In this document: positions 7,241 through 48,146 of the stretch, in pieces
How the letters are laid out: every line of letters starts with the position of its first letter
How positions within the stretch are numbered: position 1 is the first letter of the stretch
Source of the DNA: Candidatus Nanopelagicales bacterium
GTDB taxonomy: Bacteria; Actinomycetota; Actinomycetes; S36-B12
NCBI GenBank assembly: GCA_028687755.1
Contig: JAQTZL010000001.1
Location: 201,404-265,403, forward strand
DNA: 64,000 nt
Reading direction: 5' to 3'
Position numbers and translations under genes: made by a program
The notes under the pieces: generated by a model
What the model was told of the DNA's origin: nothing
Database searches by the model: none
The model's input: the letters and a program-made list of their open reading frames with translations, nothing else

Positions 7241-7310
7241 GCGATCACCGTAAAAAAAATGAAGTGAAATATCTAGGCGAAATTTCGCAACTGTGGATAA
7301 CTCGCCATTG

Positions 7311-32950: not shown

Positions 32951-33871
32951 CTATGCAACGTTCAAGAACGAATTCAGCACTTTCACGAGCCCAGCAGGGT
33001 TATCGCTTTGGATTGAATGACCGGCATCGGGAACGATCTCGAACCGCAGTGATGCAGCACGCGAGGTGAATTCTGCAACATGTTCATCAGTGACAAAAGC
33101 AGAAGCACCGCCACGGATCAACATCATCGGCAACTGGATCGCAGAAACGTCTTCCCACAGTGCATCGAAGGAAGCGGCTGGGTTTGCATCGTCTTTTTCA
33201 TCCGACGACAACTTGTCGTAACGCCAACCCCACTGACCATCCTCATATTTGCGGGCATTGTGCACCACACCACGCTCAATGAGAATCGCTGGGCGATTTG
33301 GTGCAAGGGCTGCGGTCGCGTCGATCATTTCTGCCAACGACGCATAACGCGTGGGACCTTGGGTGAGCGCTGTAGTGCCGCGTTCTTCCTTCGTCATCTT
33401 CTTCATCTGTTCAAGCTGGCTAGGCGTGACGTCAATGACCGTGACAGATGTGAATAAATCTGGGCGCAACGCAGCTAATCGAATTGCAGTTAGCCCGCCC
33501 AAAGACATGCCAATTAATGCAACTGGAGCAGGGAGCTGCATTTGGTCCAATACATCAGCAATCGCAGTTGCGTTCGTGAACGGCCAATAGGCCTTGTCTT
33601 CACGCCAATCTGAATGTCCATGCCCAGGAAGGTCGATGGCAATGATGGATTGGTCGAGCAAGAGTGCAACGGCATCCCATGTGTGAGCATTTTGACCGCC
33701 ACCATGAAGGAATACTGCTGTTGGTGACTCGACTCCCCAATGCAGGGAGGAGATAGCAGTGCCATCGGCCAGTTTCCAAAAACGCCGTTCTAAGGCAGGT
33801 TCAGCCCAAGTGACACCTAGATGATCCGCTGTCTGTTCCAGCAGATGCTTCTCTGAGATGGTCTCACTCAC
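32951..33871 (-). CDS. alpha/beta hydrolase
   Basis: HGGGQNAHTWD and nucleophile elbow GMSLGG are present, with a C-terminal GH. Confidence 0.8.
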   Translation of the reverse strand: MSETISEKHLLEQTADHLGVTWAEPALERRFWKLADGTAISSLHWGVESPTAVFLHGGGQNAHTWDAVALLLDQSIIAIDLPGHGHSDWREDKAYWPFTNATAIADVLDQMQLPAPVALIGMSLGGLTAIRLAALRPDLFTSVTVIDVTPSQLEQMKKMTKEERGTTALTQGPTRYASLAEMIDATAALAPNRPAILIERGVVHNARKYEDGQWGWRYDKLSSDEKDDANPAASFDALWEDVSAIQLPMMLIRGGASAFVTDEHVAEFTSRAASLRFEIVPDAGHSIQSDNPAGLVKVLNSFLNVA

Positions 33872-34079
33872 AGCTTCGCTCCTTTATTACATGCGGGCAC
33901 TTCTGAACTTGATGGTACGGAACTTCATCATCAACGAGGTGCTGTTTCCTCACTTTGCTCAAAGAATGAGGACATGCATCGTGGAATTCTTGCCAAATTG
34001 CCGGAACTTCCAATTGGCGCAACGCTCAAATCACGCAACACAACCACAATTTTGATCAACTCCTGCCTAGGCTCACACA

Positions 34080-34925
34080 GTGAGCGATCGATATGGGTCA
34101 GATGTGCTGGGTGGCCCCTTAGCTGGGCGTTCCCCTGCTCGGCCAACACCACCACAAGTCGCAGCCGAGCTTGGCATGGTTCTTGAATGCCCGCATACGG
34201 GTTGGGTCGGTGCCATCACCGGGATTAATAAAGGTCCGCAAGGTTGGGCGGTTGCCTTGGAAGATCGCAAAGGTCGAACCAAGATGTTTCTCTTCACCGA
34301 TCCCCTGTTCCTTGAAGGTGAACTCATTGCCTTAACCAGATCAACCTCACCTTCGTCTACAACTCGAAAGCGCACAGCTTCGGGCTCACTTGCAGTCACT
34401 GATGAACGCGCCAGAGTTGCTCGCGGCTCGCGCATTTGGGTTGAAGGCAAACAAGACGCCGAACTCGTGGAAAAAATCTGGGGCGCTGACCTTCGCGTTG
34501 AGGGTGTTATCGTTGAAGAACTTGGTGGCGCTGATGCATTACTCGCGGCAGTGCAAAATTTTCAACCTGATGCACAACACAAAATCGGGATCCTGCTCGA
34601 TCACTTAGTTCCTCACAGTAAAGAGCAGCGAATTGCAGACGAGGTCAATCGCGCCTTCCCGCAGCACGTGCTCATTCTCGGGCATCCGTATGTCGACGTG
34701 TGGCAAGCAGTACGCCCACAGACACTCAATATTGATCAATGGCCAACGATTCCCAAATCCATCGGATGGAAGGAAGGGGTGTGTGCACACTTCCAATGGG
34801 ATGCAGACACGTCAGCAACGTGGAGAACGATCCTGAGCAAGGTCAACACCTTCACTGACCTTGAAACAAGCCTACTTGGCCGGGTTGAAGAGCTGATTGA
34901 CTTCGTTACTGACTCACACACATAA
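34080..34925 (+). CDS. DUF3097 domain protein
   Basis: Conserved actinobacterial pattern (CPHTGWVGAI...WVEGKQDAELVEKIWG...). Confidence 0.6.
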   Translation: MSDRYGSDVLGGPLAGRSPARPTPPQVAAELGMVLECPHTGWVGAITGINKGPQGWAVALEDRKGRTKMFLFTDPLFLEGELIALTRSTSPSSTTRKRTASGSLAVTDERARVARGSRIWVEGKQDAELVEKIWGADLRVEGVIVEELGGADALLAAVQNFQPDAQHKIGILLDHLVPHSKEQRIADEVNRAFPQHVLILGHPYVDVWQAVRPQTLNIDQWPTIPKSIGWKEGVCAHFQWDADTSATWRTILSKVNTFTDLETSLLGRVEELIDFVTDSHT

Positions 34926-35048
34926 CTCCTGACAAACCATGCACAAAGAAATTATTCGTGAAGGTTCCAAATCTAAAAAGGCAGCACTCGCGGCACTGTT
35001 GAAGGAAATGCGCGCGCAGTCTCAACAACATCTGAAGCTTTTCAGTAG

Positions 35049-35663
35049 CTAGCAAAAATACATGTCTTGATTGCTAAGCATGCCTTGCACTGTTGGGGAC
35101 AAGCGCCCAATGACAGCAACAGATGGCGACGCCCAAGCAATGGCCAAGACTGCCTGCTTCTTACCTCGACCCGGCATGGTGCCACGGGCCACAGAAACGT
35201 TAATCGTGGTTGATGAAGCTGTTGTACCTGCCCAACAGGCACTGGCCTGCTTGCGCGATTGCGCCTGATGGGAAGTCAAAGTTCGACCAGGTGTTCCAAC
35301 TCCCCCAAGAACAATGTTGGTCACTGCTTGGGTATTTGACTCCCAAGGTGCCGATACCGCGAATGATGAACCTGGAGTAAACGCGGTAGGAATAGAAAGG
35401 ATTGCGACACCATTGCGCACCTTTGCCAATGGTCCATTCCAGTATTCGGGTTGAGCTGGCTCAACCATGGTCGCGGGTTCATTAAGCAGGCCGCGCTGAA
35501 TCCCAATCGTGCAGCCTTCGCAGTTACGCACGACTAACCGAATGATTGTTGATTGACCCAAAGATGGCACAGGAGTTGCAGCGCTTGCTGAGTCAACGAG
35601 AACTACGCCGGCACTGGCAATCATGGCCACAATCGCCATACAAGCTGTGACAAGTCGCTTCAT
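35049..35663 (-). CDS. secreted hypothetical protein
   Basis: Signal peptide MKRLVTACMAIVAMIASAGVVLV...SASA. I recognised no family. Confidence 0.5.
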   Translation of the reverse strand: MKRLVTACMAIVAMIASAGVVLVDSASAATPVPSLGQSTIIRLVVRNCEGCTIGIQRGLLNEPATMVEPAQPEYWNGPLAKVRNGVAILSIPTAFTPGSSFAVSAPWESNTQAVTNIVLGGVGTPGRTLTSHQAQSRKQASACWAGTTASSTTINVSVARGTMPGRGKKQAVLAIAWASPSVAVIGRLSPTVQGMLSNQDMYFC

Positions 35664-35778
35664 GTATCCCCCGTCAGGACGAGCCCAGCGGGCTGCACAA
35701 TGGCGGCAACTTTAGACCTTAATCTCTCGTTCACATTGCAGGAACCTCGCCGACATCCGCACATGTCACAGTTCAATC

Positions 35779-36099
35779 ATGAAGACACATCTGGCCAATC
35801 ACACGGGGGATGAATCCATGAACAATCAAGAAGCAAACTTCGCCTGGATACAGCAGAATTACACCCTGCAGTTGCTCGCAGATTCGCGCACTGTGCGCTC
35901 ACCGCAAGAAGCTGTGGTTGCCCATCTTCGCTGTTGGGAAAAAGTAATGAGCGAAAACAGCGATTGCCGCTCATCTATCCTCAAACTCAACATTGAAGAC
36001 ATCATCAACTTCCGCGACACCACATTGGCGACAATCACTGCCGAGCATTACGGCTACACCATTAATGATCTAGCCATCCACCTGCGTATTGCTGCGTAA
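35779..36099 (+). CDS. hypothetical protein
   Basis: 106-aa ORF in an otherwise empty interval. No family was recognised. Confidence 0.3.
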   Translation: MKTHLANHTGDESMNNQEANFAWIQQNYTLQLLADSRTVRSPQEAVVAHLRCWEKVMSENSDCRSSILKLNIEDIINFRDTTLATITAEHYGYTINDLAIHLRIAA

Positions 36100-36149
36100 C
36101 TCAACAACGTCACCAGTACACAAGACAGCAGGAACCTGTCGCCAATAAC

Positions 36150-38093
36150 TTATGCCCCGATATTGAGTAAATCAGGCGAAGTTGGCCGCGCAAGGGCGGG
36201 ATCTGGTGCCGGAACTAAGCGCTTAGCTGCTCTTTGTTGATCCAGAAGTACTTTGAGCGCTGCAACCGTGCCCGCCGAAGCGCGGTCATCGGCGAGGTTG
36301 CGCAACTCGGTTGGATCAGCAGTGATGTTGTAACACTCAAACTGATCGGCAGGCGGTGCGATCTGTCCGGCAGTTGGATTCAATGATGTGACCGTCGTGG
36401 TGGCACTCTTAGTTCCGGGTGCTGAAAGGTTTCCAGCAATGATGGTTTCTACGTTCTGCTGATTTGGTGTAGTCCAAAACTGCGGGTTATCCCAGTAGCG
36501 GGTGTACTTCCATTGCTCCATTGTTCCGCCGACACCTGTAGGCATCATGGCAACGACAGTTTCCAAGCTGCTTGGCGCGGCGACGGATGGATACATCGCA
36601 CCCTTCCATGACACCTGCTTTGCTCCCGTGAACGGTGCATCATCGGTCATGAAGAACACAGGGGCTGGCGTGATCATCTTGTCTTCGCCGAGCAGGAATC
36701 CCGAGAGATCGCGACCAGGTAACGCCGTGGCTTGGGTATGCGTTTGCTCCAACGTACGTAGCGCCTTCTTTTGATCAATGCCCGCAAGCCCCAACATTGT
36801 TGGCAATAGATCTGCATGCGAGGTCAGATCGGAGGACGCAACCGCCTTGGGGAACAACTTCGGATTGTGGAACATCAATGGCACCTTTAACACTTCGTCA
36901 TAGGCGTTGTGCCACTTTTGGAACATGCCGCCGTGTGCACCCAGAAGTTCACCGTGGTCAGATAGATAGACCACCACAGTGTCGCGATACGCATTGCGAT
37001 CCTGGGTCAAAGCGCGAATGACGCGACCGATCTGGTCATCGACTTCCTTTTGCAGCTGGTAGTAAAAACGCTGATGCCCCGAACCAGCCTGTGTGGGCTG
37101 CAACGCCAACTGGTACGTATCTCGGTAGCTGGCTTGAGTCGATGGCTTATTGGACAAGGTTTCAGCAGCTGATGCAGTGAATCCATCCGTGAACAAATTC
37201 ATCGGAACATTCGAACCGACCAGTTGCTGTGCCAGATAAAAGTTTTGCTGCGCCAAAGTCAGGTCGCCCCACAGTGTGATGTCATGTGGGTTGACGAATG
37301 AAGTGACCAACAACCATGGGTTCTTTGCGTGACGCAGACGCCGCAGCTCATTCACACCCTGCGTTGCAAATTGCTCGTCGCGGCCACGGCCACCTGGTGC
37401 CGATGATCCTGAATTCAGCGGATTCTTGCCGTGTGGTTCAGGCCCGACCCAACCATCGAAACCAAATTCGTCTAGTTGATTAGCTTCCAAATAAATTTTC
37501 TCGGCCGCCGGCACCGGAACGCTGTTGTTATCGAATGTATTGAGTGTGTTGTAACTGCCTGGTTCATAGAGATCCGCATCGGAAATATGCCACTTGCCCT
37601 TGTAATACGTGTCATACCCGCCAGCGCGGAACCAGTCGCCCATTGTTGGAACAGTTGTGGGGTCCAACCAATACAGATCAGTCTCAATTGCACTCTTGGC
37701 TGCTCCCGATGTCTGTGAAACACCGTGGAGTGAGGGGTACTGACCCGTGAAGATTGATGCACGACTTGGTGCGCACGCTGCAGCCATCACGTGGTGGTTA
37801 TTGAATTCCATCGCATGCTCGCGCAAAAAATTCTGGGCTGACAAATTGCGCCGACGCCATAGCGCGAGTTCTTGAGTTTCGTAGGTCGGAGCCATCCGCT
37901 GCTCATCAACCATGACCACTAAAAAGTTCGGGCGGCGAGTGAGCCGACCCCGAGGAGTAAACGGCCCAAGATTTGCAGCCGATGCCGTTTGCCCTCCCGC
38001 ACCTACCAACGCAGCGGCTGCGCCGGTAACACCCATGGCCTGCAGGAGACGACGACGATTGAGGCCAGTGGTTGACTCTTCAGATTGCGACAT
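36150..38093 (-). CDS. Tat-exported sulfatase
   Basis: Twin-arginine signal (NRRRLLQAMGVTGAAAAL) and the formylglycine motif CAPSRASIFTG. Confidence 0.85.
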   Translation of the reverse strand: MSQSEESTTGLNRRRLLQAMGVTGAAAALVGAGGQTASAANLGPFTPRGRLTRRPNFLVVMVDEQRMAPTYETQELALWRRRNLSAQNFLREHAMEFNNHHVMAAACAPSRASIFTGQYPSLHGVSQTSGAAKSAIETDLYWLDPTTVPTMGDWFRAGGYDTYYKGKWHISDADLYEPGSYNTLNTFDNNSVPVPAAEKIYLEANQLDEFGFDGWVGPEPHGKNPLNSGSSAPGGRGRDEQFATQGVNELRRLRHAKNPWLLVTSFVNPHDITLWGDLTLAQQNFYLAQQLVGSNVPMNLFTDGFTASAAETLSNKPSTQASYRDTYQLALQPTQAGSGHQRFYYQLQKEVDDQIGRVIRALTQDRNAYRDTVVVYLSDHGELLGAHGGMFQKWHNAYDEVLKVPLMFHNPKLFPKAVASSDLTSHADLLPTMLGLAGIDQKKALRTLEQTHTQATALPGRDLSGFLLGEDKMITPAPVFFMTDDAPFTGAKQVSWKGAMYPSVAAPSSLETVVAMMPTGVGGTMEQWKYTRYWDNPQFWTTPNQQNVETIIAGNLSAPGTKSATTTVTSLNPTAGQIAPPADQFECYNITADPTELRNLADDRASAGTVAALKVLLDQQRAAKRLVPAPDPALARPTSPDLLNIGA

Positions 38094-38249
38094 AGTCGCA
38101 TCCTGTCACTAAATCAACACATAATCAGACGTGTTCACATGTGTGAGGCCAAACCCCTGCATCTCATTGAGACATTGACATGGTTATCTGCGCCCAGATG
38201 TACACAAACATTAGGTGAAGTTTAGTGACCCAGTGTGGAACGAGGGCCG

Positions 38250-38945
38250 CTAACGGCGGCCCTGTCCACTTCCATTACCAACGCCGGCACCTTTACTGGC
38301 GCCTTTACCCGCACCCATGCCATTGCCTTTGCCTTTGCCTTGACTTTGACCCTTGCTATGACCAGCTTCCTGACCGCTGGTGGTCGCAGTTGGGTCAGCC
38401 TGGAGTGCAGTGAATGCCTTGAGATGGTTTTGCGAACCGCGTAGCAAGTTATTGAGCACCCGCGTGATGTCCGCTGCCGGATTTGTTGCGATGGCCTTCT
38501 GTAAATCACTGATATCCAGTTTCTCAATGGAAATACCAGCTTGCGCTGCAGCTTGGATTGATGTGGAACCCGATGCAATCAATTGGTTGTAAAGCGCCTG
38601 CAATTCAGGATCATCAAATTTGCCCACTGCATCACCAACCGTGGGATCAGTAACACCGTACGCAGCAAGTAACTTCTGAATACTTGCTTGGTGACGGGCT
38701 TCACTTGCAGCAATATTCTCGAAGGTATTCACGTCGAATGTCTCGCCAAGAACGGTGTACACATCGTGGGCTAATTTTTCTTCAGCCACCATGTGCGTCA
38801 GGATGGTTGCGGTGCTATCCGACACTGTTGCAGCGCTGGCACCTCCAGCGATTGCTAGCGACATTGGTGCCGCCAGAGCGGTTACTAGTGCTGTTGTAAT
38901 AATGCGATGAGAGCCTTTGCGATTGATGATGAATCCAGTATTCAT
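38250..38945 (-). CDS. secreted ferritin-like DUF2202 protein with a Gly/Lys-rich tail
   Basis: EEKLAHDVY ... NIAASEARH pattern is present. The C-terminus is the low-complexity GKGKGNGMGAGKGASKGAGVGNGSGQGRR. Confidence 0.6.
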   Translation of the reverse strand: MNTGFIINRKGSHRIITTALVTALAAPMSLAIAGGASAATVSDSTATILTHMVAEEKLAHDVYTVLGETFDVNTFENIAASEARHQASIQKLLAAYGVTDPTVGDAVGKFDDPELQALYNQLIASGSTSIQAAAQAGISIEKLDISDLQKAIATNPAADITRVLNNLLRGSQNHLKAFTALQADPTATTSGQEAGHSKGQSQGKGKGNGMGAGKGASKGAGVGNGSGQGRR

Positions 38946-39156
38946 GATCGTGCTCCTTTCTTGATATCTCCAGATTTACGGGCCAGCATCAAGAAGTCAT
39001 CACGCATAGGTCAACGTGATGTAAGAGCTTGGTTGCAATGGCAAGAATCCATCACTTGGCAGGTCTAAAGACTCTGCAACATCTGTCTGCGATAGGGCTT
39101 TGGTCCCGACGCAATTAGCACGACGGGTCCGAGTGAATAATGGTCCCGTGAAAAAC

Positions 39157-39936
39157 ATGCGTTTGGTGTGCGTGGGTGATTCCTTTACCGAAGGTATGTG
39201 CGATGAGTTGCGTGAAGATGACAACTACCTCGGTTGGGCAGATCGCCTGGCTCAGCAATTAGCAATGCAGGAAGAAACGCAAGTCCAATATGCCAACTTG
39301 GCGATCAGAGGAAAACTCTTAGATCAAGTGGTGGATGAACAGATCGACGCAGCGTTAGTGCTTAACCCGACGATCATCACCTTCCATGCTGGCCCTAACG
39401 ATGTGTTGCGCAGAGGCACTGACCTTGAGGATTTGTTCACGAGGTACAGCAACGCCGTTCGACGGCTCTGTGAAAACCCGGCTACAACCGTTGTTCTCTT
39501 CACCGCGATTGGTCGCGCAGGTGGCACCGGCAAAGTCGCCCAACTCCTTGCTGATCGATTTGCCAGGTTCAATGCCAATGTCAGAGCTACGGCAAAAGAA
39601 CATGACTGCATCGTGGTTGATCTCGAACCTATCGACGTGCTCACCGATCGACGGTTGTGGTTTGAAGATCGCCTCCATCTCAATGCCGATGGTCATGCCA
39701 GAGTTGCTGCTGCAGCATTCAGTGTCCTTACGAATAAACAGAAAGACCCAGAAATCGCACAGTGGTGGATTCAACCACTTCCCACACAACCGAAGATAAG
39801 CAAAACTCAGGCCCTCAAGGCTGATGCCTTATGGGTGAAGAACCACATGTTGCCTTGGGTGGGTAGACGACTCAAAGGTGTATCAAGCGGCGATGGGCGC
39901 CAGCCTAAAGATCAAGGATTGCGGGAAATTCGTTAG
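39157..39936 (+). CDS. SGNH/GDSL hydrolase
   Basis: The start is set at MRLVCVGDSFTEG (block I GDS). Block V DRLHLN is present. Confidence 0.8.
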   Translation: MRLVCVGDSFTEGMCDELREDDNYLGWADRLAQQLAMQEETQVQYANLAIRGKLLDQVVDEQIDAALVLNPTIITFHAGPNDVLRRGTDLEDLFTRYSNAVRRLCENPATTVVLFTAIGRAGGTGKVAQLLADRFARFNANVRATAKEHDCIVVDLEPIDVLTDRRLWFEDRLHLNADGHARVAAAAFSVLTNKQKDPEIAQWWIQPLPTQPKISKTQALKADALWVKNHMLPWVGRRLKGVSSGDGRQPKDQGLREIR

Positions 39937-40439
39937 ATCAGACCGCGATTCTTGAGGTATTCCTCTACATCAGAAACGACTTCATCGCGGATCATGTCTG
40001 GACCCCACACTTGATCACAGATGTCCCAAACCTGCACAAGTTGCGTAAAGTTCAGGATTTCGCAAAGAACTCCTACATCTTGAAGATCACGGATTCCACG
40101 ACCCGCTCTCACTTTCATCGCAAGTAAGTGTTCGGGAGATGCGACTTGAACCAAAATTCCAGGTGCTGCAAACATTTCCCAACTGCGTGAGTCCGCAATT
40201 CTTGGAAGTAACGGCGCTACTTGATCGTTGAGCCAATTTGGAGCAAGGTCACCGCGCTCGTGTGCCATCTCGGCAGCAATTTGATCAATGACTCCCACCG
40301 GCGTAATCCGTGCATCGATATCGCGCGTCACAGTTGAACGGTCATATCCCAACAACATCGCCGCTCCGCCAACCAGGTAAATCTCTACTTCCAAACCACG
40401 CGCATCGAGTCGCTCACCAAGTTCGGTGAGTATTTCCAT
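39933..40439 (-). CDS. nucleotidyltransferase-fold protein (DUF6036-like), candidate toxin/effector
   Basis: The start is trimmed to MEILTELGERL. The pattern YLVGGAAMLL ... TRDIDA resembles minimal NTase-fold proteins. Confidence 0.45.
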   Translation of the reverse strand: MEILTELGERLDARGLEVEIYLVGGAAMLLGYDRSTVTRDIDARITPVGVIDQIAAEMAHERGDLAPNWLNDQVAPLLPRIADSRSWEMFAAPGILVQVASPEHLLAMKVRAGRGIRDLQDVGVLCEILNFTQLVQVWDICDQVWGPDMIRDEVVSDVEEYLKNRGLI

Positions 40440-40464
40440 GATTTGATCTTTTGTCGTGAACACA

Positions 40465-41067
40465 TCACACCGACGCAAGATTGGATCGATCCACAAGGAT
40501 GCCACGGCTACGCAAGCTAGGAATCCCCTCGCAGAGCGCCCGGCAGCGAAGTCCGGGTAACGATTCTGAAATTCCCACCCACCACAGTTCCCGAAGGAAG
40601 TACTGGGGTTCACGCGTCCACGATGGTGCACGATCTAATCCAGCGGCTCGACTCCAATGCACCGCCATCCCAGCAAGTAACGCATCGATGCGTCTATCTC
40701 CTGTGGAGGCTGGTTGCGTCAGGAACAACATTTGGTCAGAAATTAATGAAGTTTTTGCGAACGCATCGTTCATACCAACCACGTAGCGAAGAATGTCGAG
40801 GTCCAAATCACCCAATTGCGCGTTCGAAGTTTTCTTCAAGGCTCGAAGATTCACCGCGTGCGAAGCCATGGTTCCCAACCACGTTCCGGTATGCATTGTT
40901 CCTGGCTTCAGTTCCAAAAAGAGATCAATACGGTCAGTAACCGTCTGGCCAGCGGACAAACTTCCGGCCTCATAAGCACTGATGTTGGCTTGACGGGTGC
41001 CTAATAAGAATGCGACATGGGATTGCGTCATCCCTAACTGCATTCGTTGTTGTTCAAGGCCTTTCAT
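40465..41067 (-). CDS. XRE-family HTH protein with an uncharacterised C-terminal domain, candidate antitoxin
   Basis: RMQLGMTQSHVAFLLGTRQANISAYEAG is a Cro/C1-type HTH. It lies 25 nt upstream of the NTase-fold gene. Confidence 0.55.
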   Translation of the reverse strand: MKGLEQQRMQLGMTQSHVAFLLGTRQANISAYEAGSLSAGQTVTDRIDLFLELKPGTMHTGTWLGTMASHAVNLRALKKTSNAQLGDLDLDILRYVVGMNDAFAKTSLISDQMLFLTQPASTGDRRIDALLAGMAVHWSRAAGLDRAPSWTREPQYFLRELWWVGISESLPGLRCRALCEGIPSLRSRGILVDRSNLASV

Positions 41068-41225
41068 TTCGCCACTATATAACAATTTTTTATTTATATA
41101 TATTGCCTTGGCGCACACTTACAAGCCTTCAACAAATACGGGTGGGTACAGCTTCAATGAGAATGTGTATTTCCAAACAATGGTGACTAATAAATAGACC
41201 TAATGCGGCTCACTAGGGTTACGCA

Positions 41226-42086
41226 ATGAAGTTTTCGCACCTTGTAGCGTCGGCCAGTTTTTCGCTGTTGATTCCAGTCACACTCATTGCAACCCCAGCC
41301 ATGGCGCACCCATCGAGTGCTGCTGTCGCAAAGGTCAAGAGCGCCATGCCTCAAGGCCCTGCTCTTGTCCACCTTGAGGCATCAACGGCAAGTGTGAGTG
41401 CCAAGCCTGCTGGCTTCCAAAAGTTGACGTTGACGCTGAATTCTCCAAAGACGGTTCACTGGCTGGGTGAAGTGAAAAACGCGCAAGGCCAAGACATAGT
41501 CACGCACGGAGTACAACCAGCTTCGCAACTTCCCGTTGACTGGAAGCCTCTTGGCCATGCACAAAATCTTGGTGCAATGGCAACGCTTACCTGGAACACA
41601 CACACGACTAACCCTCGTTACGCGCTTGTGCAGATGGAAAAACCTAGTTACAACTCACGCAAGCAGTCGATTCAGGCACGCTTCACAACCCAAGACGCCA
41701 TTCCCGCACAGATCGCCGATGTGTCATTGAATGTGCATCGAGCACCTGCCAAATCAAACCGTGGATTTCCAGCAACAACACTGTTCAATTTCACGGCAAC
41801 CACTCTTGGTCAAACCGTGCAAACGAACACAACCATGGTGCAAGAAAGCATCATCAATGGCGACATGATGTGTTATCAATTTGGTCTCATCCAGCAGGCG
41901 CCTGTTGCCACACTGCCTAATAATTTGAATTGTGGAGGAGACGTGATATTCATCAATGGGCAATTTTCTATGAACATCCCCACACCGACCCAAACCGGCC
42001 AAGTTATTTTTAATGGCGAGTTAGTCAGCAACGGCGGACAACCAATGCCGTTTTACGGAGTTATCGCCCAATTGCAATATTCGTAA
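41226..42086 (+). CDS. secreted hypothetical protein
   Basis: Signal peptide MKFSHLVASASFSLLIPVTLIATPAMA. No family was recognised. Confidence 0.5.
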   Translation: MKFSHLVASASFSLLIPVTLIATPAMAHPSSAAVAKVKSAMPQGPALVHLEASTASVSAKPAGFQKLTLTLNSPKTVHWLGEVKNAQGQDIVTHGVQPASQLPVDWKPLGHAQNLGAMATLTWNTHTTNPRYALVQMEKPSYNSRKQSIQARFTTQDAIPAQIADVSLNVHRAPAKSNRGFPATTLFNFTATTLGQTVQTNTTMVQESIINGDMMCYQFGLIQQAPVATLPNNLNCGGDVIFINGQFSMNIPTPTQTGQVIFNGELVSNGGQPMPFYGVIAQLQYS

Positions 42087-42097
42087 CCCAAGAAGAC

Positions 42098-42313
42098 TTA
42101 CTCCTTGGGCATACTGAAAATGCGAATGCCTGCGTAAATCGTGCCGATAACGAAGCCAAGCGCTGGCCACATTGGCCAGAAGTAGCCCTGACCGGTGAGA
42201 CCCCACACCACAACACAAATCACCCAGACGGCGACGAAGCCGGCAACTGTTCGCCAGAAACCGTCAATTGACGCTGCTCGCTTTGCTGCTACATCACTCA
42301 TCATCAAGCCCAT
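42098..42313 (-). CDS. small two-TM membrane protein
   Basis: 71 aa with two hydrophobic helices and host-like base composition. Confidence 0.45.
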   Translation of the reverse strand: MGLMMSDVAAKRAASIDGFWRTVAGFVAVWVICVVVWGLTGQGYFWPMWPALGFVIGTIYAGIRIFSMPKE

Positions 42314-42345
42314 CTCTCATCTACCGGTGTTGCGGTGCCCCAGCG

Positions 42346-43083
42346 TCAGTGTTGAGGTTTCGTGAAGGTGGCGGCTTCTTCGGGTCCGGCCTCGCAGGCG
42401 TCGCTGCAGCCGCAGCCGTCGGCCGGTTCCTCGCCCACCGGTCCGGGGACGCAGGCGCATGCCTTGCCCTGCCATGCCTCGCGGCCCTCCCGCAGCGCCA
42501 GGCCCGCGACCACCAGGCCCACGACCGGGTCGGCCCACCACCAGCCCAGCAGCGAGTTCAGTAGCAGCCCGACGAGCAGGACGGCGGAGAGGTATGTGCA
42601 CAGCAGCGTCTGCTTGGAGTCCGCCACCACGGTCACCGACCCCAGTGCCCGTCCGGTGCGGCGCTGCGCCCACGACAGCGTCGGCATGATCGCCAGCGAC
42701 AGCGCCGCGATCACGATGCCGACCGTGGAATGCTCCGGCGCCTCCCGCGTGAGCAGCGTCTTGACCGACTCGAAGGCCACGTAGCCGGCCAGCGCGAAGA
42801 ACGAGATCGCGATGGCCCGCAGCGCCGCCCGTTCCCGGGTCTCGGGCAGCCGATGCCGGAACTGCCACAGAATGATCAGCCCGGACGACATCTCCACTAC
42901 CGAGTCCAGCCCGAACCCGACCAGCGCGACCGACGATGCCGCGGCCCCGGCCGCGATCGCCACCACCGCCTCGACCGCGTTGTAGGCCACCGACGCCCCC
43001 GCCAGCCACTGCGCCCGACGTCCCAGCCTGCGCCGGTCCGACGCGGTCAACGCCAGCCGAGCCGGGGCCGCTGTCCCGGTCAT
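42346..43083 (-). CDS. cation diffusion facilitator (CDF) family metal efflux protein
   Basis: The start ATG at 43083 overlaps the ArsR stop (ATGA). Six TM helices are present with AYNAVEA and DSVVE-type motifs, plus a Cys-rich C-terminal tail. Confidence 0.75.
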   Translation of the reverse strand: MTGTAAPARLALTASDRRRLGRRAQWLAGASVAYNAVEAVVAIAAGAAASSVALVGFGLDSVVEMSSGLIILWQFRHRLPETRERAALRAIAISFFALAGYVAFESVKTLLTREAPEHSTVGIVIAALSLAIMPTLSWAQRRTGRALGSVTVVADSKQTLLCTYLSAVLLVGLLLNSLLGWWWADPVVGLVVAGLALREGREAWQGKACACVPGPVGEEPADGCGCSDACEAGPEEAATFTKPQH

Positions 43084-43478
43084 GACCGCGCCCGCGTGCC
43101 GTAGGTGGGACACAGCGTGACCGCCTCGCCGGTGTCCGCCAGCAGGACCTCCGCCGCCTCCAGCAGCCCGACCAGCGCGGGCTCGGCGGCCAGGGAGTAC
43201 ACCGACGCCCGGCCCTGCGCCCGGACCTGAACCATCCCGCAGTCCAGCAGGCACCGCAGATGCGCCGACACCGTCGACTGCGCAAGCCCAAGGTGCTCGG
43301 TCAACTCCACGACCCTGTGCTCACCCAGCATCAGATGCGTCAGGATCGACAACCGCGACGGGTCACCCAGACTCCGGAACAGACTCGCCGCCGCCGCGAT
43401 CGCGGCCGCGTCCACCCCAGTCCCCGAACCGTCGCGACCCCCCGCTGGACTACTCGCCACCATCGCTGTCATCGCCAT
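43080..43478 (-). CDS. ArsR/SmtB family metalloregulator
   Basis: LFRSLGDPSRLSILTHL ... VVELTEHLGLAQSTVSAHLRCL is a classic winged-HTH ArsR pattern. Confidence 0.85.
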   Translation of the reverse strand: MAMTAMVASSPAGGRDGSGTGVDAAAIAAAASLFRSLGDPSRLSILTHLMLGEHRVVELTEHLGLAQSTVSAHLRCLLDCGMVQVRAQGRASVYSLAAEPALVGLLEAAEVLLADTGEAVTLCPTYGTRARS

Positions 43479-43547
43479 GCGACGATGATAGGCCGTTGGG
43501 CTGGAGCGGCGCGAGGCACGGGTGTAGCGAACCGCTCGCGGTCGTCC

Positions 43548-43810
43548 TCAACCGGAGCCCAGGCGGCGGCGCAACTCTAGGTTCTCCGCCTGCGCGGTGG
43601 CCAAGGCATGGCGCAGTTGCTGGACCTCGGACTGATGCTGGGACCGCATCTGCTTCAGTTGCGTGGACAGCGCCCGCACGGCCGACGATGAGGACTGGGC
43701 CGCCGGTTCGGCGTCGTCTTGGTCGTGGCGGTGCTGCGGCCGGGCGCGTAGGTCGGTGATCAGTGACCGCAGTTCGGGGTGCCGGCCAACAATGCGGGTG
43801 CATCGTGCCA
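43548..43810 (-). pseudogene. 5'-truncated DUF6262-like gene fragment
   Basis: The GRHPELRSLITDLRAR ... coiled-coil tail AQAENLELRRRL resembles the C-terminal part of DUF6262 proteins of high-GC actinomycetes (from memory). The N-terminal HTH part is missing where the GC content drops. Confidence 0.35.
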
Positions 43811-43842
43811 TCTGTATGTTGCGAGGATCATATGAGGCAAAC

Positions 43843-44154
43843 TCACGGATTCTGGTAAATCGCATGGTTGCCTATCCTGCGCCACCGCACGAGTAATTCA
43901 CCGTCACGTTCATTGAACTCAAAGGTTGCTCGACTGTCAGGTGACGCAAACGACCACGTCATTTCCCACACCCTCGGCGCACTGACCATGCGACGTACGT
44001 GCAATGCGGAAGGCCAAACACTTGATTGCCTTGATGCTTCAAACGCTACACATCCATCATGGAACTGCTGAACGACAGACATGAATGCACGGCGGTGCTC
44101 ACTGGGTAATCCCAAGAAGTCACGATCAAATCGCGGTGTGGCCTCGAACTTCAT
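43843..44154 (-). CDS. RelE/ParE-superfamily-like toxin
   Basis: 103 aa. The C-terminal RVWEMTW...LLVRWRRIGNHAIY resembles the RelE/ParE fold pattern. It overlaps the upstream antitoxin gene by ATGA. Confidence 0.5.
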   Translation of the reverse strand: MKFEATPRFDRDFLGLPSEHRRAFMSVVQQFHDGCVAFEASRQSSVWPSALHVRRMVSAPRVWEMTWSFASPDSRATFEFNERDGELLVRWRRIGNHAIYQNP

Positions 44155-44468
44155 TCAGCGATTGAATCTAAGTTCTCAAGTGCTTGCACAAAGTTATCCA
44201 CATCGGAGTACGCGCGTACTTCACCACGAGCAACGAGCTCATCAACTTCGCGCTCGCCTGCCTGCCAGCCTTCTTGCCAGAACCATGCTTCATCTGCAGG
44301 AACCGCAACAGTTGGTCGAAATTCCAAGATGCCATCGGCACGCTCAGTGATCTCTACCTGTGCACCTGGTTCATCGAGACGATATTTCTTACGCAGTGCC
44401 GCAGGCAGGGCAACTAAGCCTCGTGCCTGAACGGCTACAAATCCGTGGAAGGGAACAGCTGAACTCAT
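44151..44468 (-). CDS. AbrB/MazE/SpoVT-type antitoxin
   Basis: VAVQARGLVALPAALRKKYRL...GAQVEITE matches the swapped-hairpin AbrB-like DNA-binding pattern. Confidence 0.65.
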   Translation of the reverse strand: MSSAVPFHGFVAVQARGLVALPAALRKKYRLDEPGAQVEITERADGILEFRPTVAVPADEAWFWQEGWQAGEREVDELVARGEVRAYSDVDNFVQALENLDSIAE

Positions 44469-44483
44469 GTGCCACGATTAGCC

Positions 44484-44521
44484 GTATTGCAGTAATTCAG
44501 CAATACAGCAATACAGCAATC
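44484..44521 (-). promoter_or_regulatory. candidate operator array upstream of the AbrB-type TA operon
   Basis: An inverted repeat gtattgc-N9-gcaatac overlaps three tandem 8-mers (cagcaata cagcaata cagcaatc). The array lies 16-53 nt upstream of the antitoxin start. Confidence 0.35.
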
Positions 44522-44550
44522 TTTCGACCCTAAACACAGAAGGTGGGTAC

Positions 44551-44994
44551 TTACCCCGCCCGCAACACCAACATGTACTGACCGCCACCAGGTTCAATCG
44601 ACGTCGACAAGGCCATGCCTGGCACAAAGCGGGAGAGCCGATCGAGTAACCAGTCAGAGGCCTCTTGAGCGTCCGATTCACTTGGGCAACGAGCAATAAC
44701 CTCTCGCCCACCCTTACGGGAAAGACGATCAACAGTGGCAACGATCGGCGAAGGATCGACCACCAGAAGATCTGGTGACCACGCAACGACTGGGGCGACC
44801 TTGCCCTTCTTGGTGTTGCAGTCGCGGTGAGCCAGGCGCTCAACCATGACCGCGCCTTTCTTTCCCTTGGCAGCCGCAAACCCATCAACGGACGGGCCGC
44901 GATCGGAATTCACGGAGGCTTCTGGATCTACCGGGGCATCACAGAGCCAGCAACGCCAACCATCGCGTTCGCCGATCTCATTTAGGTCACTCAT
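44551..44994 (-). CDS. HNH-type nuclease domain protein
   Basis: GWRCWLCDAPV ... RLAHRDCNTKKG has a Cys pair plus an H-N pattern in the N-terminal 70 aa. The C-terminal half is uncharacterised. Confidence 0.5.
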   Translation of the reverse strand: MSDLNEIGERDGWRCWLCDAPVDPEASVNSDRGPSVDGFAAAKGKKGAVMVERLAHRDCNTKKGKVAPVVAWSPDLLVVDPSPIVATVDRLSRKGGREVIARCPSESDAQEASDWLLDRLSRFVPGMALSTSIEPGGGQYMLVLRAG

Positions 44995-45073
44995 GTGGGC
45001 AGGCTATGCCATTGAGACACAGACCCATCGCCCCGTGCTGTTCTTAACTGAGTAGATCCAGCACACGTCTGCG

Positions 45074-45772
45074 TTATGGATAAGTGTTGTGGATACCTGC
45101 GGTGCGCTCAACCCAACCGCCTGCACTCGTACAAGCATTATCAAATGACGTGCTCTCCGAACTTGCGAGAACAGAACCTGGCGGTGTGATCTCAGATCCG
45201 CTCTTGGACATACAGATAGCCATCGGCGGAAAGTTCGTGGTGGTGGTTGTCACATCGTCGATAAACAAGCTCACAGCATCAAAAGTTGCAGGCGGTGTGG
45301 CGTAGGCCTTATTCACGAGATTTTTTGCACCAACAGAGATCACATTGGGCGCAAGCACTACTGCATGGAACTTCAATGTCGACGCATCGATCAACTGTGG
45401 CTTGGTGAGTTCAACAACAAATGAATCACTGGCGCCATCGGAATTATGTTCAACCAACACGGCATTTGGTGCAGCATCTGCAAACACCTGTGGCCATACC
45501 TGCACGGCGCGTGAAAGTGAACTCACACTTGAGTCGCGATATGGGCGATCAGTGAAGGCGATGATGCTTTCGTCAGTGCCATTGAGGGTGAGCTCGTATG
45601 AGCCATCCGCATTGGGTTGCAGCGTTCCTGAATCCGAAGTCAGACTAAAAAGCCAATTGCGTTCTGATGAATCTGCCCCGGTTTGCGGTGAGTACACAGA
45701 AGTTGCCCAGGCCATGACCACAACAGTTGCAATTCCAGCGAGAGCGAAAATGGCCCAGAGCTTTTTGTTCAT
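45074..45772 (-). CDS. secreted hypothetical protein, paralog A
   Basis: Signal peptide MNKKLWAIFALAGIATVVVMAWA. It shares FTDRPYR / APNAVL / SLFIDD motifs with the 50651..51481 product. Confidence 0.5.
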   Translation of the reverse strand: MNKKLWAIFALAGIATVVVMAWATSVYSPQTGADSSERNWLFSLTSDSGTLQPNADGSYELTLNGTDESIIAFTDRPYRDSSVSSLSRAVQVWPQVFADAAPNAVLVEHNSDGASDSFVVELTKPQLIDASTLKFHAVVLAPNVISVGAKNLVNKAYATPPATFDAVSLFIDDVTTTTTNFPPMAICMSKSGSEITPPGSVLASSESTSFDNACTSAGGWVERTAGIHNTYP

Positions 45773-45821
45773 GCGACAACGGTATCTGCTTTTCAAATAA
45801 CACACACCATCGCAATAACAA

Positions 45822-45862
45822 GTGCAGGCGCCACTACCTCACATCTGTAGTGACGCCTGCAC
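45822..45862 (-). terminator. hairpin downstream of the phytase-like gene
   Basis: gtgcaggcgccact ... agtgacgcctgcac forms a 14-bp stem with one mismatch and a 13-nt loop. It lies 13 nt after the stop at 45875. Confidence 0.5.
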
Positions 45863-45874
45863 TTTAAATTTGAG

Positions 45875-47299
45875 CTACTTCTTGATTGCGGCCTTTGCAG
45901 GTGCTTTTGCTGACACCTTTGACTTCGCCTTTGCAGCGGCTGTCACCTTCGCCGAGTTAGCGCTCTTTGCAAGTGCCTTGACTTCAGCATCCGGTGTGGT
46001 TGGCAGATTTTGTGCCAAGGTCACGTAGAGGAACTGCGTTGGTGCACCTGTCGGCACGATGGCCTTGAGCTTGGTGTCATAGATGAAGGCGAAGTCGTTG
46101 TCGTTGACGAACGCCAAGGTGTTTGCATTCTCAACGGCCATGCCTTCGACCTTCTTTGGCATTTCAGGTACCGACGTGCTGCGGAAGATCACGTTCTTGA
46201 ATGGCAACATCGAAGTCACCGCTGAATCTGTTGGCTTGAGGGATTCCAAGGTTGGGGCATTTGACGTGTCAAAAGTACTGCCGAGGATTGATTGAGCTGG
46301 GTTCAAGGCAACCTGAGAAACAATGAAGGAGTTGTCCGTGCGCTCTTGCACCAACATGATGTTGTTGGTCAATGCCACCATTGCTGAAAGTTTCAAATCA
46401 GCAGGCTTGGTTGTGGTTGGGTCAACAGCCTCTGGAGCCTCAAACTTATAGACCCATTCAGCATCAATGACCTTGGTCGCGAGGTCCATCCGCAAGATTC
46501 GGGTCTGCAAGGAAGCATCGCCTGTCTTCTTATCTGGGTTCAGCAGTGGGCTTTGAAGCCCGATGAACAAGTACTTCTCATCTGGTGACATTGCCAGTGC
46601 TTCGAATCCACGATTGCCCTTGCGGGTCAACAACACTGCAGGCAAGGAATCGGTAACTGGGTAGCCAGCGCCTGTCCCCTTCCAGCCCTTTGGAACGAAA
46701 CGGTTTTTAACGACGCCGTCAGCATCAGTCTGAATCAGCGATGGGCCGTACTCATCCACCAACCAGAAGTCACCATTCTTGGTACGCACTACGCCTTCAG
46801 TGTCCAAACCATTGACGTTGTAGTTGATTGGAGCGCCTGCTGGCGTCGTTGGTACCTGGTCGTAGCCAGGAACGTTTGGCAGGCCAGTGACGCCAACACC
46901 CTTGATCGTCTGAATTGCAATCTTTTCAGCGATGGTCGCTGAACCACCCGCAACCTTGATCTTCATGATCAGTGGTGAGAAGTCAGGAACAGGAAAACCA
47001 AGGCCTGCATTGCCGTCAGCCATCACCGTGTCGTTGTTTGGCCCGCGGTCGGTGACCACCCAGTACTCGCCTTTGCTGCCTGGACTGCGAAACAGATCTG
47101 AGCCGAATCCACCTAACTGAATTCCTGAGTCATTTTTCACCGAACCTGGCAGAGCCGCATTTGATGCTGCAGCAAGTCCTTCTGATGGGAAGGTATAAAT
47201 ACTCACGCCAGTGGTAGCGGCGAAAGCCGGGACCGCCGCGACGGTGAGGGCTGCAGCGCTCAAGCCCAAGATTGCAATGCGTGCACGCACGTTGTTCAT
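45875..47299 (-). CDS. secreted esterase-like-activity-of-phytase family protein with a Lys/Ala-rich tail
   Basis: The start is set at MNNVRARIAILGLSAAALTV. A beta-propeller-like body is present (GFEALAMSPDEKYLF). The C-terminal tail is KVTAAAKAKSKVSAKAPAKAAIKK. Confidence 0.55.
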   Translation of the reverse strand: MNNVRARIAILGLSAAALTVAAVPAFAATTGVSIYTFPSEGLAAASNAALPGSVKNDSGIQLGGFGSDLFRSPGSKGEYWVVTDRGPNNDTVMADGNAGLGFPVPDFSPLIMKIKVAGGSATIAEKIAIQTIKGVGVTGLPNVPGYDQVPTTPAGAPINYNVNGLDTEGVVRTKNGDFWLVDEYGPSLIQTDADGVVKNRFVPKGWKGTGAGYPVTDSLPAVLLTRKGNRGFEALAMSPDEKYLFIGLQSPLLNPDKKTGDASLQTRILRMDLATKVIDAEWVYKFEAPEAVDPTTTKPADLKLSAMVALTNNIMLVQERTDNSFIVSQVALNPAQSILGSTFDTSNAPTLESLKPTDSAVTSMLPFKNVIFRSTSVPEMPKKVEGMAVENANTLAFVNDNDFAFIYDTKLKAIVPTGAPTQFLYVTLAQNLPTTPDAEVKALAKSANSAKVTAAAKAKSKVSAKAPAKAAIKK

Positions 47300-47579
47300 C
47301 CTTACGTTGAAGTATTGAAATAACGCGTGAGCAAACCAGCCTTTGATGAACACCAATCAGTGGAAAACACTCGCCCACATGACGTGAAGATGAACTTCTC
47401 TGTGCAACCTGCAGCCACGTGTGCGCAGAAAGGCAGTAACTACATTCTCTGGGTACTACAAAAAGACGTTATCGATGCGCCAAGCCCCCCAGGTATTCAC
47501 CAACGTGCGCAGCAGCGAACGACCGGAACATGGTGAAACCCTTTGAATCATGCCCCCAGCACGGCGGAAACCTTTTGAG

Positions 47580-48146
47580 TTACGAGCGCAGCTGAACTTC
47601 GAGCAAGACTTCATTGCGACGAAGAAACCACGGCTTCCAAGGCGGGTCATACCGCGCCCACACTGCAGGGCCGACGGCTTCGTATCCAGAAAAGTTGCCG
47701 ACCTGCGAATCAGCGCCAGCACCAGCACCAGCACCAGCACCAGCACCAGCACCAGCAAGAAGCCTACGCAACTCAGCTTCATGTTCCATCACACTCGAAT
47801 ATGTCCATCGACCAGACCAGCGAGCTGCAAGCGCAAGATGCGAAGGAATTTCGCGCAAGGTTATTTGTGCATCATCAGGCAGCGGATAGTCACCGATCCC
47901 TTTTCTGCCAGGCAACACGAAACTCACTACCCACGCATCAGTTTCAGAAGACGCGGCTTGCAGCACAGGTGCAGTCATCGAGATTTGCTTGGCCGAGATA
48001 TATCGAACAAGTGACCCAAAGGCTTTGTTTCCTACCCGATCGGCGGAACCTGTCATCACAACATCGGCGACTGTGCAACGCTCATATCTGCGCAATTCAA
48101 CATTGCCGGAAACCTCAACTACTTCGTACTTTTGCTGCTCAGTCAT
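47580..48146 (-). CDS. SOUL/HEBP heme-binding family protein with an internal (Ala-Gly)n insert
   Basis: The start at 48146 is preceded by GAGGAGG. YEVVEV...YERC...ISMTAPV is the SOUL pattern. Confidence 0.65.
   Translation of the reverse strand: MTEQQKYEVVEVSGNVELRRYERCTVADVVMTGSADRVGNKAFGSLVRYISAKQISMTAPVLQAASSETDAWVVSFVLPGRKGIGDYPLPDDAQITLREIPSHLALAARWSGRWTYSSVMEHEAELRRLLAGAGAGAGAGAGAGADSQVGNFSGYEAVGPAVWARYDPPWKPWFLRRNEVLLEVQLRS
47716..47757. repeat. perfect hexanucleotide microsatellite (CCAGCA)x7
   Basis: Read directly from the sequence. It lies inside the SOUL-family CDS and encodes AGAGAGAGAGAGAGA on the minus strand. Confidence 0.95.

Follow-up and report, generated by a model that had tools for sequence, protein, structure and literature searches.

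How did a short block of very GC-rich DNA carrying a metal-efflux cassette come to lie in the genome of a freshwater actinobacterium of intermediate GC content? The locus in question belongs to a stretch of 64,000 nucleotides from a Candidatus Nanopelagicales bacterium (assembly GCA_028687755.1, contig JAQTZL010000001.1, positions 201,404 to 265,403 of the forward strand), hereafter called the window, in which all coordinates are given; the window proteins are annotated as MDD2817416-22 (PHN51_01310-01340). A first-pass annotation of this DNA had proposed, at 42320-43810, an abrupt insert of about 1.5 kb holding an ArsR/SmtB repressor gene, a CDF transporter gene and a truncated DUF6262-like gene. 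We conclude, with a probability of about 85%, that a single integration brought a foreign fragment of 1,458 bp, related to the Tn554 transposons and carrying a metal-resistance operon, into a 71-nucleotide (nt) host spacer.

The composition of the segment is sharply distinct. In 200-nt windows, the GC content is 68-78% at ~42300-43800, against 38-62% across the flanking 38000-48000, and each 1-kb block outside the insert, over the whole window, lies at 46-59%. For statistics we used the limits mapped from the empty site described below (42327-43784). Within these limits, the insert has 71.5% GC, against 52.6% for the rest of the window (z = 10.4); the 1,193 other windows of equal length have a mean of 52.6%, a standard deviation of 1.8 and a maximum of 56.5%. 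Likewise, the tetranucleotide L1 distance to the rest is 0.733 for the insert, compared with a mean of 0.258 and a maximum of 0.427 elsewhere. The abrupt high-GC insert is thus borne out as a single sharp plateau, with its exact edges slightly inside those first proposed; they can be moved by 3 nt, CCG being present at either junction. All the genes of the insert are on the minus strand. Its composition is unameliorated, with a GC content at third codon positions (GC3) of 0.90 for the CDF gene, 0.86 for arsR and 0.84 for the DUF6262-like remnant, amid host GC3 around 0.5 (0.41-0.61 in ten host genes). The overlapping open reading frames (ORFs) in many frames, which the first-pass annotation had pointed out, are indeed confined to the insert within the window, yet this is a trivial outcome of the scarcity of stop codons in high-GC DNA.

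The insertion is resolved to the base by an empty site. This site lies on L076, a 10.6-kb ENA scaffold with 52% GC, found via a homologue that is 75% identical to the 286-amino-acid (aa) protein of the left flank. L076 is syntenic with the window over genes for DUF3097, a sulfatase, a GDSL lipase, a nucleotidyltransferase, an HTH protein, the 286-aa protein, a 2TM protein, a 103-aa protein and a 105-aa protein. In L076 the 2TM gene directly adjoins the 103-aa gene, with a 71-nt spacer between them; BLAST pairs L076 8200-9400 with window 41126-42326, and L076 9398-10560 with window 43782-44936. In the window, this spacer is split into 13 nt (42314-42326) and 58 nt (43785-43842), which add up to the same 71 nt. 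Indeed, the window without 42327-43784 aligns to L076 gap-free over 143 nt, and zero host bases are lost. A relative without the insert, for which the first-pass annotation had suggested looking, was found, with the spacer fully accounted for. A reconstructed empty-site join (42326 to 43785) would read CTACCG followed by GCCAACAATG, or TCACCG followed by ACC in a variant.

The trinucleotide CCG, present in a single copy in the empty site (L076 9398-9400), stands at both junctions of the window, at 42324-42326 and at 43782-43784. On the minus strand the right copy reads CGG, which is Arg53, the first retained codon of the tnpC-like gene presented below. The junction CCG could be either microhomology or a 3-bp duplication. 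No convincing inverted repeats were found at the insert ends, no tRNA gene that could serve as an integration target is present in the window, and an Rfam scan of 41000-45000 gave no match. Two further scans for relatives returned no second empty site of this kind: among genome contigs with the flanking phytase-like protein, the relatives reach at most 74% aa identity (best local segment 75%), with no synteny and no empty site, and among metagenome contigs with the 103-aa flank protein, only distant homologues (43-50%) were found, in high-GC contigs. Altogether, the junctions, the atypical composition and the empty site make the segment a horizontally acquired islet.

The right edge of the insert tells what kind of DNA was acquired. 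At 43548-43784 (minus strand) lie residues 53-130, and the stop codon, of a 130-aa DUF6262/TnpC-like protein whose N-terminal 52 residues are gone. By cluster look-up, this remnant is 100% identical to residues 53-130 of the protein P0136 (78 residues, from RHPELRSL). P0136 (130 aa) passes the Pfam model DUF6262 (PF19776) with 42 bits for a cutoff of 29; the remnant alone gave no Pfam DUF6262 match even at E <= 10, the matches obtained being spurious coiled-coil ones. The truncation of the gene and the edge of the insert coincide to the base, as had been anticipated from the fall in GC content, and the DNA homology of two homologous loci, L064 and L063, begins at 43785 and 43780, respectively. 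The insertion also created a chimeric ORF of 105 aa (43548-43865, minus strand), the first 27 codons of which derive from the 103-aa gene, at its 3' end, and from the host spacer; in the PGAP annotation it has 87 aa and starts with an ATG at 43811 (PHN51_01330). Its homologues are DUF6262 proteins of 128-150 aa, and it is probably non-functional.

We inspected the loci of DUF6262 homologues (five for P0125, one for P0124, eight for P0123, and the annotated plasmid pMYC1 of Mycobacterium adipatum). In every one of them, three genes share one orientation, the DUF6262 gene coming third, and variable cargo follows. Several of these contigs are cut short upstream; where they reach far enough, the order is a ~385-aa tyrosine recombinase, an unusually long tyrosine recombinase of ~730 aa and the DUF6262 gene, the start of which overlaps the end of the gene before it. 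Van Houdt et al. 2012 (PMC3414803) defined actinobacterial Tn554-related transposons by this architecture, with a TnpC-like third gene. Neither inverted repeats nor classical duplications accompany the insertion of elements of the Tn554 type (PMC3414803). The order in the window, tnpC remnant, arsR and cdf, is the one expected at the cargo end of a Tn554-related element. At the insert, both tyrosine recombinase genes (tnpA and tnpB) are absent, host DNA beginning at 43785, and the segment is therefore immobile: it is a transposon remnant, not a member of this group. The earlier remark that no mobility gene was left holds for a working one, but the truncated gene is itself a TnpC-like mobility remnant. 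A scan of viral contigs with the tnpC protein gave no matches.

The same insert is found in a second strain. L001, a 36.5-kb Logan contig from SRR22315507, is 100% identical to window 33080-47742 and spans both junctions. In SRR22387809, contig L075 matches window 38401-42320 at 98.5% (59 mismatches), and the 1,515-bp contig L077 matches 42291-43805 at 99.47% (8 mismatches), with 36 nt of host flank on the left and 21 nt on the right; the overlap between the two contigs is exactly 30 nt long, or k-1 at k = 31. This sample therefore carries the same insert at identical junctions, with 8 single-nucleotide polymorphisms (SNPs) relative to the window. The transfer is recent only in a relative sense, since the insert predates, or has spread across, strains that differ by 1.5% in this flank. 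The divergence is lower in the insert (8/1458, 0.55%) than in the adjacent flank (59/3920, 1.5%; Fisher p = 0.0035). The insert could be younger than the strain split and have spread by recombination, or L075 and L077 could come from different co-occurring strains.

In the SRR22387809 assembly, the insert forms a contig of its own: on the left the assembly is broken 6 nt ahead of the junction, and on the right 21 nt beyond it. At these break positions the empty-site relative does not share the base of the window (42321, C/T; 43806, T/G), which hints at co-occurring alleles in this sample.

The cargo consists of two genes. The first, at 43080-43478 (minus strand), encodes an ArsR/SmtB metalloregulator of 132 aa from an ATG at 43478, with matches to HTH_5 (PF01022, 54.3 bits, cutoff 22) and NF033788 (82.4 bits, cutoff 55). 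Its best relative of solved structure is CmtR (Rv1994c) of Mycobacterium tuberculosis (PDB 2JSC, E 8e-12). The segment HLRCLLDCG aligns to HLSCLRGCG of 2JSC, so that the equivalents of Cys57 and Cys61 in helix alpha4 (C-x3-C) are kept, and, as in CmtR with its C-terminal Cys102, a cysteine is present in the C-terminal tail (TLCPTYG), here outside the aligned block. PGAP starts the protein at a GTG (43415), giving 111 aa. This start fits the CmtR N-terminus better, and the 21-residue extension is the most variable part among cluster members; the ATG at 43478 lies inside a conserved palindromic element, and gene callers choose the equivalent start in four diverged loci.

This element, a candidate promoter/operator of 22 nt (43469-43490, minus strand), is kept in the window and in the homologous loci L002, L005 and L006, while the neighbouring upstream DNA has diverged. 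At 43485-43490, 6 nt ahead of the ATG (43478), it contains a -10-like TATCAT; an inverted repeat, TCATCG-N8-CGATGA, spans 43469-43488. This layout suggests a -10 box that shares its bases with an operator and from which a leaderless or short-leader transcript would be made. A scan with the sigma-70 consensus found no promoter, and a scan of viral contigs for the operator element gave no matches. Downstream, the stop of arsR overlaps the start of cdf by ATGA (43080-43083), as the first-pass annotation had stated, and the same 4-nt overlap occurs in the homologous loci.

The second gene (42346-43083, minus strand) encodes a short cation transporter of the CDF family (245 aa; PF01545, 51 bits, cutoff 26.6), which scores 57 with TIGR01297 (cutoff 82). 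Its AlphaFold model (pLDDT 82.5) has 6 helices and a disordered, Cys-rich tail, the latter already noted in the first-pass annotation, and the best PDB match of the model is the membrane domain of YiiP (TMq 0.70). The protein ends ~40 residues past the sixth transmembrane helix (TM6) and gives no match to PF16916, the cytoplasmic C-terminal ZT_dimer domain, which its homologues, thousands of proteins of 204-275 aa, likewise lack. It does not have the residues of transport site A (H/D-x3-D in TM2 and H-x3-D in TM5): H155 and D159 of YiiP align to Q158 and C162 (Q158-x3-C162, TM5), and the TM2 pair is D60-x3-E64, an assignment made by position only. D60, E64, Q158 and C162 are invariant in 55 homologues. 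Between the two strains, the CDF gene has 4 synonymous SNPs and 1 non-synonymous SNP, a pattern that fits purifying selection. The combination of a thiol in the transport site, a Cys-rich tail and a thiolate sensor would point to a soft metal such as Cd or Pb, or perhaps Zn.

From what is known of these families, the cargo could form a self-contained metal-resistance operon. The CmtR-like repressor would bind the inverted repeat over its own -10 element and hold arsR-cdf off; it would be released once its alpha4 Cys pair and C-terminal Cys had bound a divalent, thiophilic metal of the Cd/Pb type, or possibly Zn; and the translationally coupled short CDF would then export the metal against the proton gradient.

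Where did this cassette come from? The best CDF homologue, P0002, is 88% identical in amino acids, and the named homologues belong to Actinomycetota (Nanopelagicales, Kineosporiaceae, Nocardioides). Contigs with homologues of the cassette uniformly have 69-74% GC. The closest cassette DNA (L002-L004) is 86% identical in nucleotides over window 42386-43493 and belongs to a metagenomic organism of 74% GC. The predicted donor is a high-GC actinobacterium, of roughly 70% GC. The proposal that a mid-GC genome recently took up DNA of a high-GC actinomycete is thus upheld by the empty site, the unameliorated composition and these homologues. The near-identical donor match that it had led one to look for, in Streptomyces or other high-GC actinomycetes, did not appear. 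The CDF family occurs on plasmids of Streptomyces, Arthrobacter and others at only 55-62% aa identity, and a megablast of the 1.5 kb against plasmids returned one weak match of 73%, to a Nonomuraea replicon. An origin in Streptomyces is unsupported and was rejected, the named relatives being Actinomycetota of the Nanopelagicales, Kineosporiaceae and Nocardioides type. At 90% identity, the clusters of the insert genes have 2-5 members (4 for CDF), all on short contigs except those of the source metagenome-assembled genome (MAG) itself; the cluster of the host 2TM protein has 32 members, four of them on contigs of 64,029, 122,181, 271,849 and 350,576 bp. These cluster sizes suggest that the insert is rare among relatives.

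The closest cassettes also differ from the one in the window. In L002 and L005, arsR-cdf is followed by a gene for a second full-length CDF (CDF2) with a ZT_dimer domain. Homology to the end of the first CDF of L002 ceases at 42386, and the last ~13 codons of the window CDF correspond to intergenic DNA in L002. A 42-nt stretch (42326-42367, minus strand), made up of the final CDF codons with their stop and a further 20 nt, matches L002 7137-7178 (no chance match in 100 shuffles), which sits downstream of the second CDF gene; relative to L002, ~1 kb with CDF2 is absent from the window. The match would imply gain or loss of a second CDF relative to the L002 cassette, and the direction of the change is undecided because arsR-cdf pairs without CDF2 occur elsewhere too (L006-L009). 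In L006/L007 (GCA_046330715.1 contig JAXLSG010000005.1; ERZ773282), a MAG labelled Candidatus Nanopelagicales, though of 70% GC, an arsR-cdf pair that is 77% identical adjoins an rve-family transposase gene, with a copper P-type ATPase, a two-component system and a TrwC relaxase nearby. This locus looks like a conjugative metal-resistance island, which would be another vehicle for the arsR-cdf module.

By what route did the fragment enter the genome? We propose that its source was a Tn554-related transposon (short and long tyrosine recombinase, TnpC-like DUF6262 gene, cargo) of a ~70%-GC actinobacterium. Of this element, only the first cargo operon and 60% of the tnpC-like gene, on its 3' side, would have been kept, and the fragment would have been integrated through illegitimate end-joining at 3-4 nt of microhomology (CCG), with all host bases preserved. 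Among integration routes, we favour such a capture as the best fit, and give it an even chance, because no host DNA was lost, 3-4 nt are shared, the insert ends in mid-gene, there are no inverted repeats and no tRNA gene serves as target. The other route, which is possible though its odds fall well short of even, is that a full element (tnpA-tnpB-tnpC-arsR-cdf, possibly with more cargo) was inserted by its own recombinases and that a later deletion removed tnpA, tnpB and the first 52 tnpC codons, its endpoint falling exactly at the element-host boundary. Such a deletion could have been caused by an abortive recombinase event at a pseudo-site inside tnpC. In favour of this route, the remnant comes from the third gene of the Tn554-related elements and is oriented towards the cargo as expected, insertion with neither inverted repeats nor classical duplications is the behaviour of the Tn554 type, and CCG could be the crossover core. 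Nonetheless, since the 71-nt spacer is complete, such a deletion could only have stopped precisely at the host junction; no recombinase fragment or element end is left; and no intermediate forms are seen in the two strains. The data cannot separate these two routes.

Other explanations question the acquisition itself or what became of the cassette. A misjoining of a high-GC contaminant fragment to a mid-GC contig, in assembly or binning, would agree with the abrupt change of composition and with the SRR22387809 assembly being broken on both sides of the insert, but it is barely credible: two samples have the same junction sequences with inserts that differ by 8 SNPs and flanks that differ by 1.5%, one assembly runs uninterrupted across both junctions, the k-1 overlap of L075 and L077 is that of neighbouring nodes in one assembly graph, and the host spacer is cleanly split. 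The recurrence of these junctions in a strain that can be told apart from the first rules out an assembly chimera. It is also very unlikely that the locus is an old resident, lost from L076 by a precise deletion. That a single empty-site relative was directly inspected leaves some room for it, but the GC3 of the insert shows no amelioration, a truncated transposon gene lies at the edge, the close homologues are all in high-GC genomes, the clusters of CDF and ArsR are tiny next to those of host genes, and a deletion restoring a gap-free spacer is improbable. Finally, the cassette might be a decaying passenger, either silenced or with its CDF disabled by the loss of its CDF2 partner and original C-terminus. 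The second full-length CDF with a dimerisation domain in the closest cassettes, the different last ~13 codons and the position of two of the three protein-changing SNPs in ArsR could be read in this way. We consider this unlikely, as both ORFs are intact and of full length compared with 55 homologues and keep all the invariant residues, cassettes without CDF2 exist elsewhere, the SNPs in CDF are mostly synonymous and the promoter/operator element is retained.

Several observations weigh against our preferred reading, that of a foreign Tn554-related fragment with a metal-resistance operon integrated once, or limit how far it can be taken. CCG alone cannot separate microhomology joining, a 3-bp target duplication and a recombinase crossover core. 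The relative that supplied the sole empty site is a rather distant one (74-89% nt identity). No donor element with the order tnpA-tnpB-tnpC-arsR-cdf was recovered, and the architecture of the donor is deduced from homologues. The regulator scores 58.5 bits with the CmtR equivalog model NF047906, far under the cutoff of 150, and we therefore call it CmtR-like and not CmtR. The CDF has neither a cytoplasmic domain nor the canonical His/Asp residues of site A, and its activity is not to be assumed from that of YiiP. The metal specificity, the operator and the co-transcription of cdf with the 2TM gene are our readings of sequence.

Two features of the locus can be joined in a more tentative proposal, which we hold to be rather doubtful: the insert would be a presence/absence polymorphism that spreads by recombination in its flanks, and the short CDFs would form a branch specific for soft metals. 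The former is proposed because the insert is less diverged than the flank and the SRR22387809 assembly graph branches at both of its sides, the latter because these CDFs have no cytoplasmic domain and have invariant Gln and Cys in place of the His/Asp ligands. If true, a cross-lineage transposon fragment joined by microhomology would have been caught in the act of spreading among co-occurring Nanopelagicales, and a streamlined freshwater actinobacterium would gain efflux of thiophilic metals, with a native 2TM gene placed under a metal-responsive promoter.

Our preferred reading gives a base-pair-resolved case of gene flow from high-GC Actinomycetota to a mid-GC freshwater lineage of Nanopelagicales. 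A non-autonomous Tn554-related fragment could thus deliver a complete, self-regulated metal-resistance operon without any working mobility gene. The locus, an abrupt GC island that is real and no chimera, can serve for calibrating the detection of horizontal gene transfer in MAGs and bears on how streamlined planktonic bacteria acquire metal tolerance. It also flags a very common, uncharacterised clade of short CDFs paired with CmtR-like sensors.

The genes next to the insert belong to the host. On the left, the 2TM-domain gene (42098-42313, minus strand; Pfam 2TM match) encodes 71 aa, or 68 aa from an ATG at 42304. It has come to follow the CDF gene in the same orientation, 32 nt after the CDF stop. 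The first-pass annotation had stated that only foreign DNA remained upstream of it; in fact 13 native nt are kept ahead of its start, the DNA beyond these being foreign. No terminator-like site was found in the insert, the only one detected lying inside the 2TM gene, and the latter is therefore probably read through from the cassette and transcribed as the last gene of its unit. The window and L075 encode the same 2TM protein although their genes differ at 5 positions, all synonymous; this small membrane protein is thus the product of a conserved gene under selection.

On the right, the neighbour of the insertion site is the 103-aa gene (43843-44154, minus strand), which overlaps the 105-aa gene (44151-44468; weak AbrB-type match); together (43843-44468) they have a layout like that of toxin-antitoxin pairs. 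Neither belongs to a family in Pfam, NCBIfam or PADLOC, and PADLOC gave no convincing defence match for the neighbours of the insert. Further left, at 39933-41067, a gene for a 168-aa nucleotidyltransferase with faint AbiEii/DUF6036 matches adjoins one for a 200-aa HTH protein, a pair kept in L075 and L076 that looks like a type IV toxin-antitoxin or AbiE-like system. L076 has ~1.39 kb more (6816-8199) between the HTH and 286-aa genes, with two extra genes (321 aa and 154 aa) that are absent at window 41126-41128; the break falls in the most AT-rich spacer of the window (38% GC, 41000-41200). The neighbourhood is thus a flexible region, with at least two independent indels.

How does this locus compare with known systems? 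Like the actinobacterial Tn554-related transposons and Tn554 of Staphylococcus aureus, it has, as a remnant, a DUF6262/TnpC-like third gene ahead of the cargo; it differs from them in having lost both recombinase genes and 40% of tnpC, and neither element ends nor an att site can be defined in it. Its regulator resembles CmtR, a sensor of Cd(II) and Pb(II), in the winged-helix core, the alpha4 Cys pair and the tail Cys, and its gene adjoins, and is co-oriented with, that of a metal exporter. The partner of CmtR in M. tuberculosis is the P-type ATPase CtpG, whereas here it is a CDF, and the window ArsR has an N-terminal extension, perhaps untranslated. With CDFs of the YiiP/FieF type, the transporter shares the Cation_efflux domain, the six-helix bundle, a TM5 Asp (D155) and a WWWAD motif, but it has no ZT_dimer domain, has Q158 and C162 for H155 and D159, and ends in a Cys-rich disordered tail. 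The closest systems are the ArsR-CDF(-CDF2) modules of high-GC Actinomycetota (L002, L005, and Nocardioides dokdonensis, where the CDF is named 'ferrous iron efflux protein F'), which have the same gene order, the same 4-nt overlap and the same upstream element, with 70-88% aa identity. The genomes that harbour these modules are uniformly high in GC, the modules being either chromosomal or part of metal-resistance islands and in many cases accompanied by a second CDF; the module of the window, by contrast, stands alone as a 1.46-kb island within DNA of a 52.6%-GC genome. Altogether, all its parts come from known families and the event is a classical small horizontally acquired islet, not a new kind of system; what is unusual is only the resolution, in that the breakpoints are exact, both an empty site and a second strain are available and the truncated gene is known in full length elsewhere, and also the freshwater Nanopelagicales recipient.

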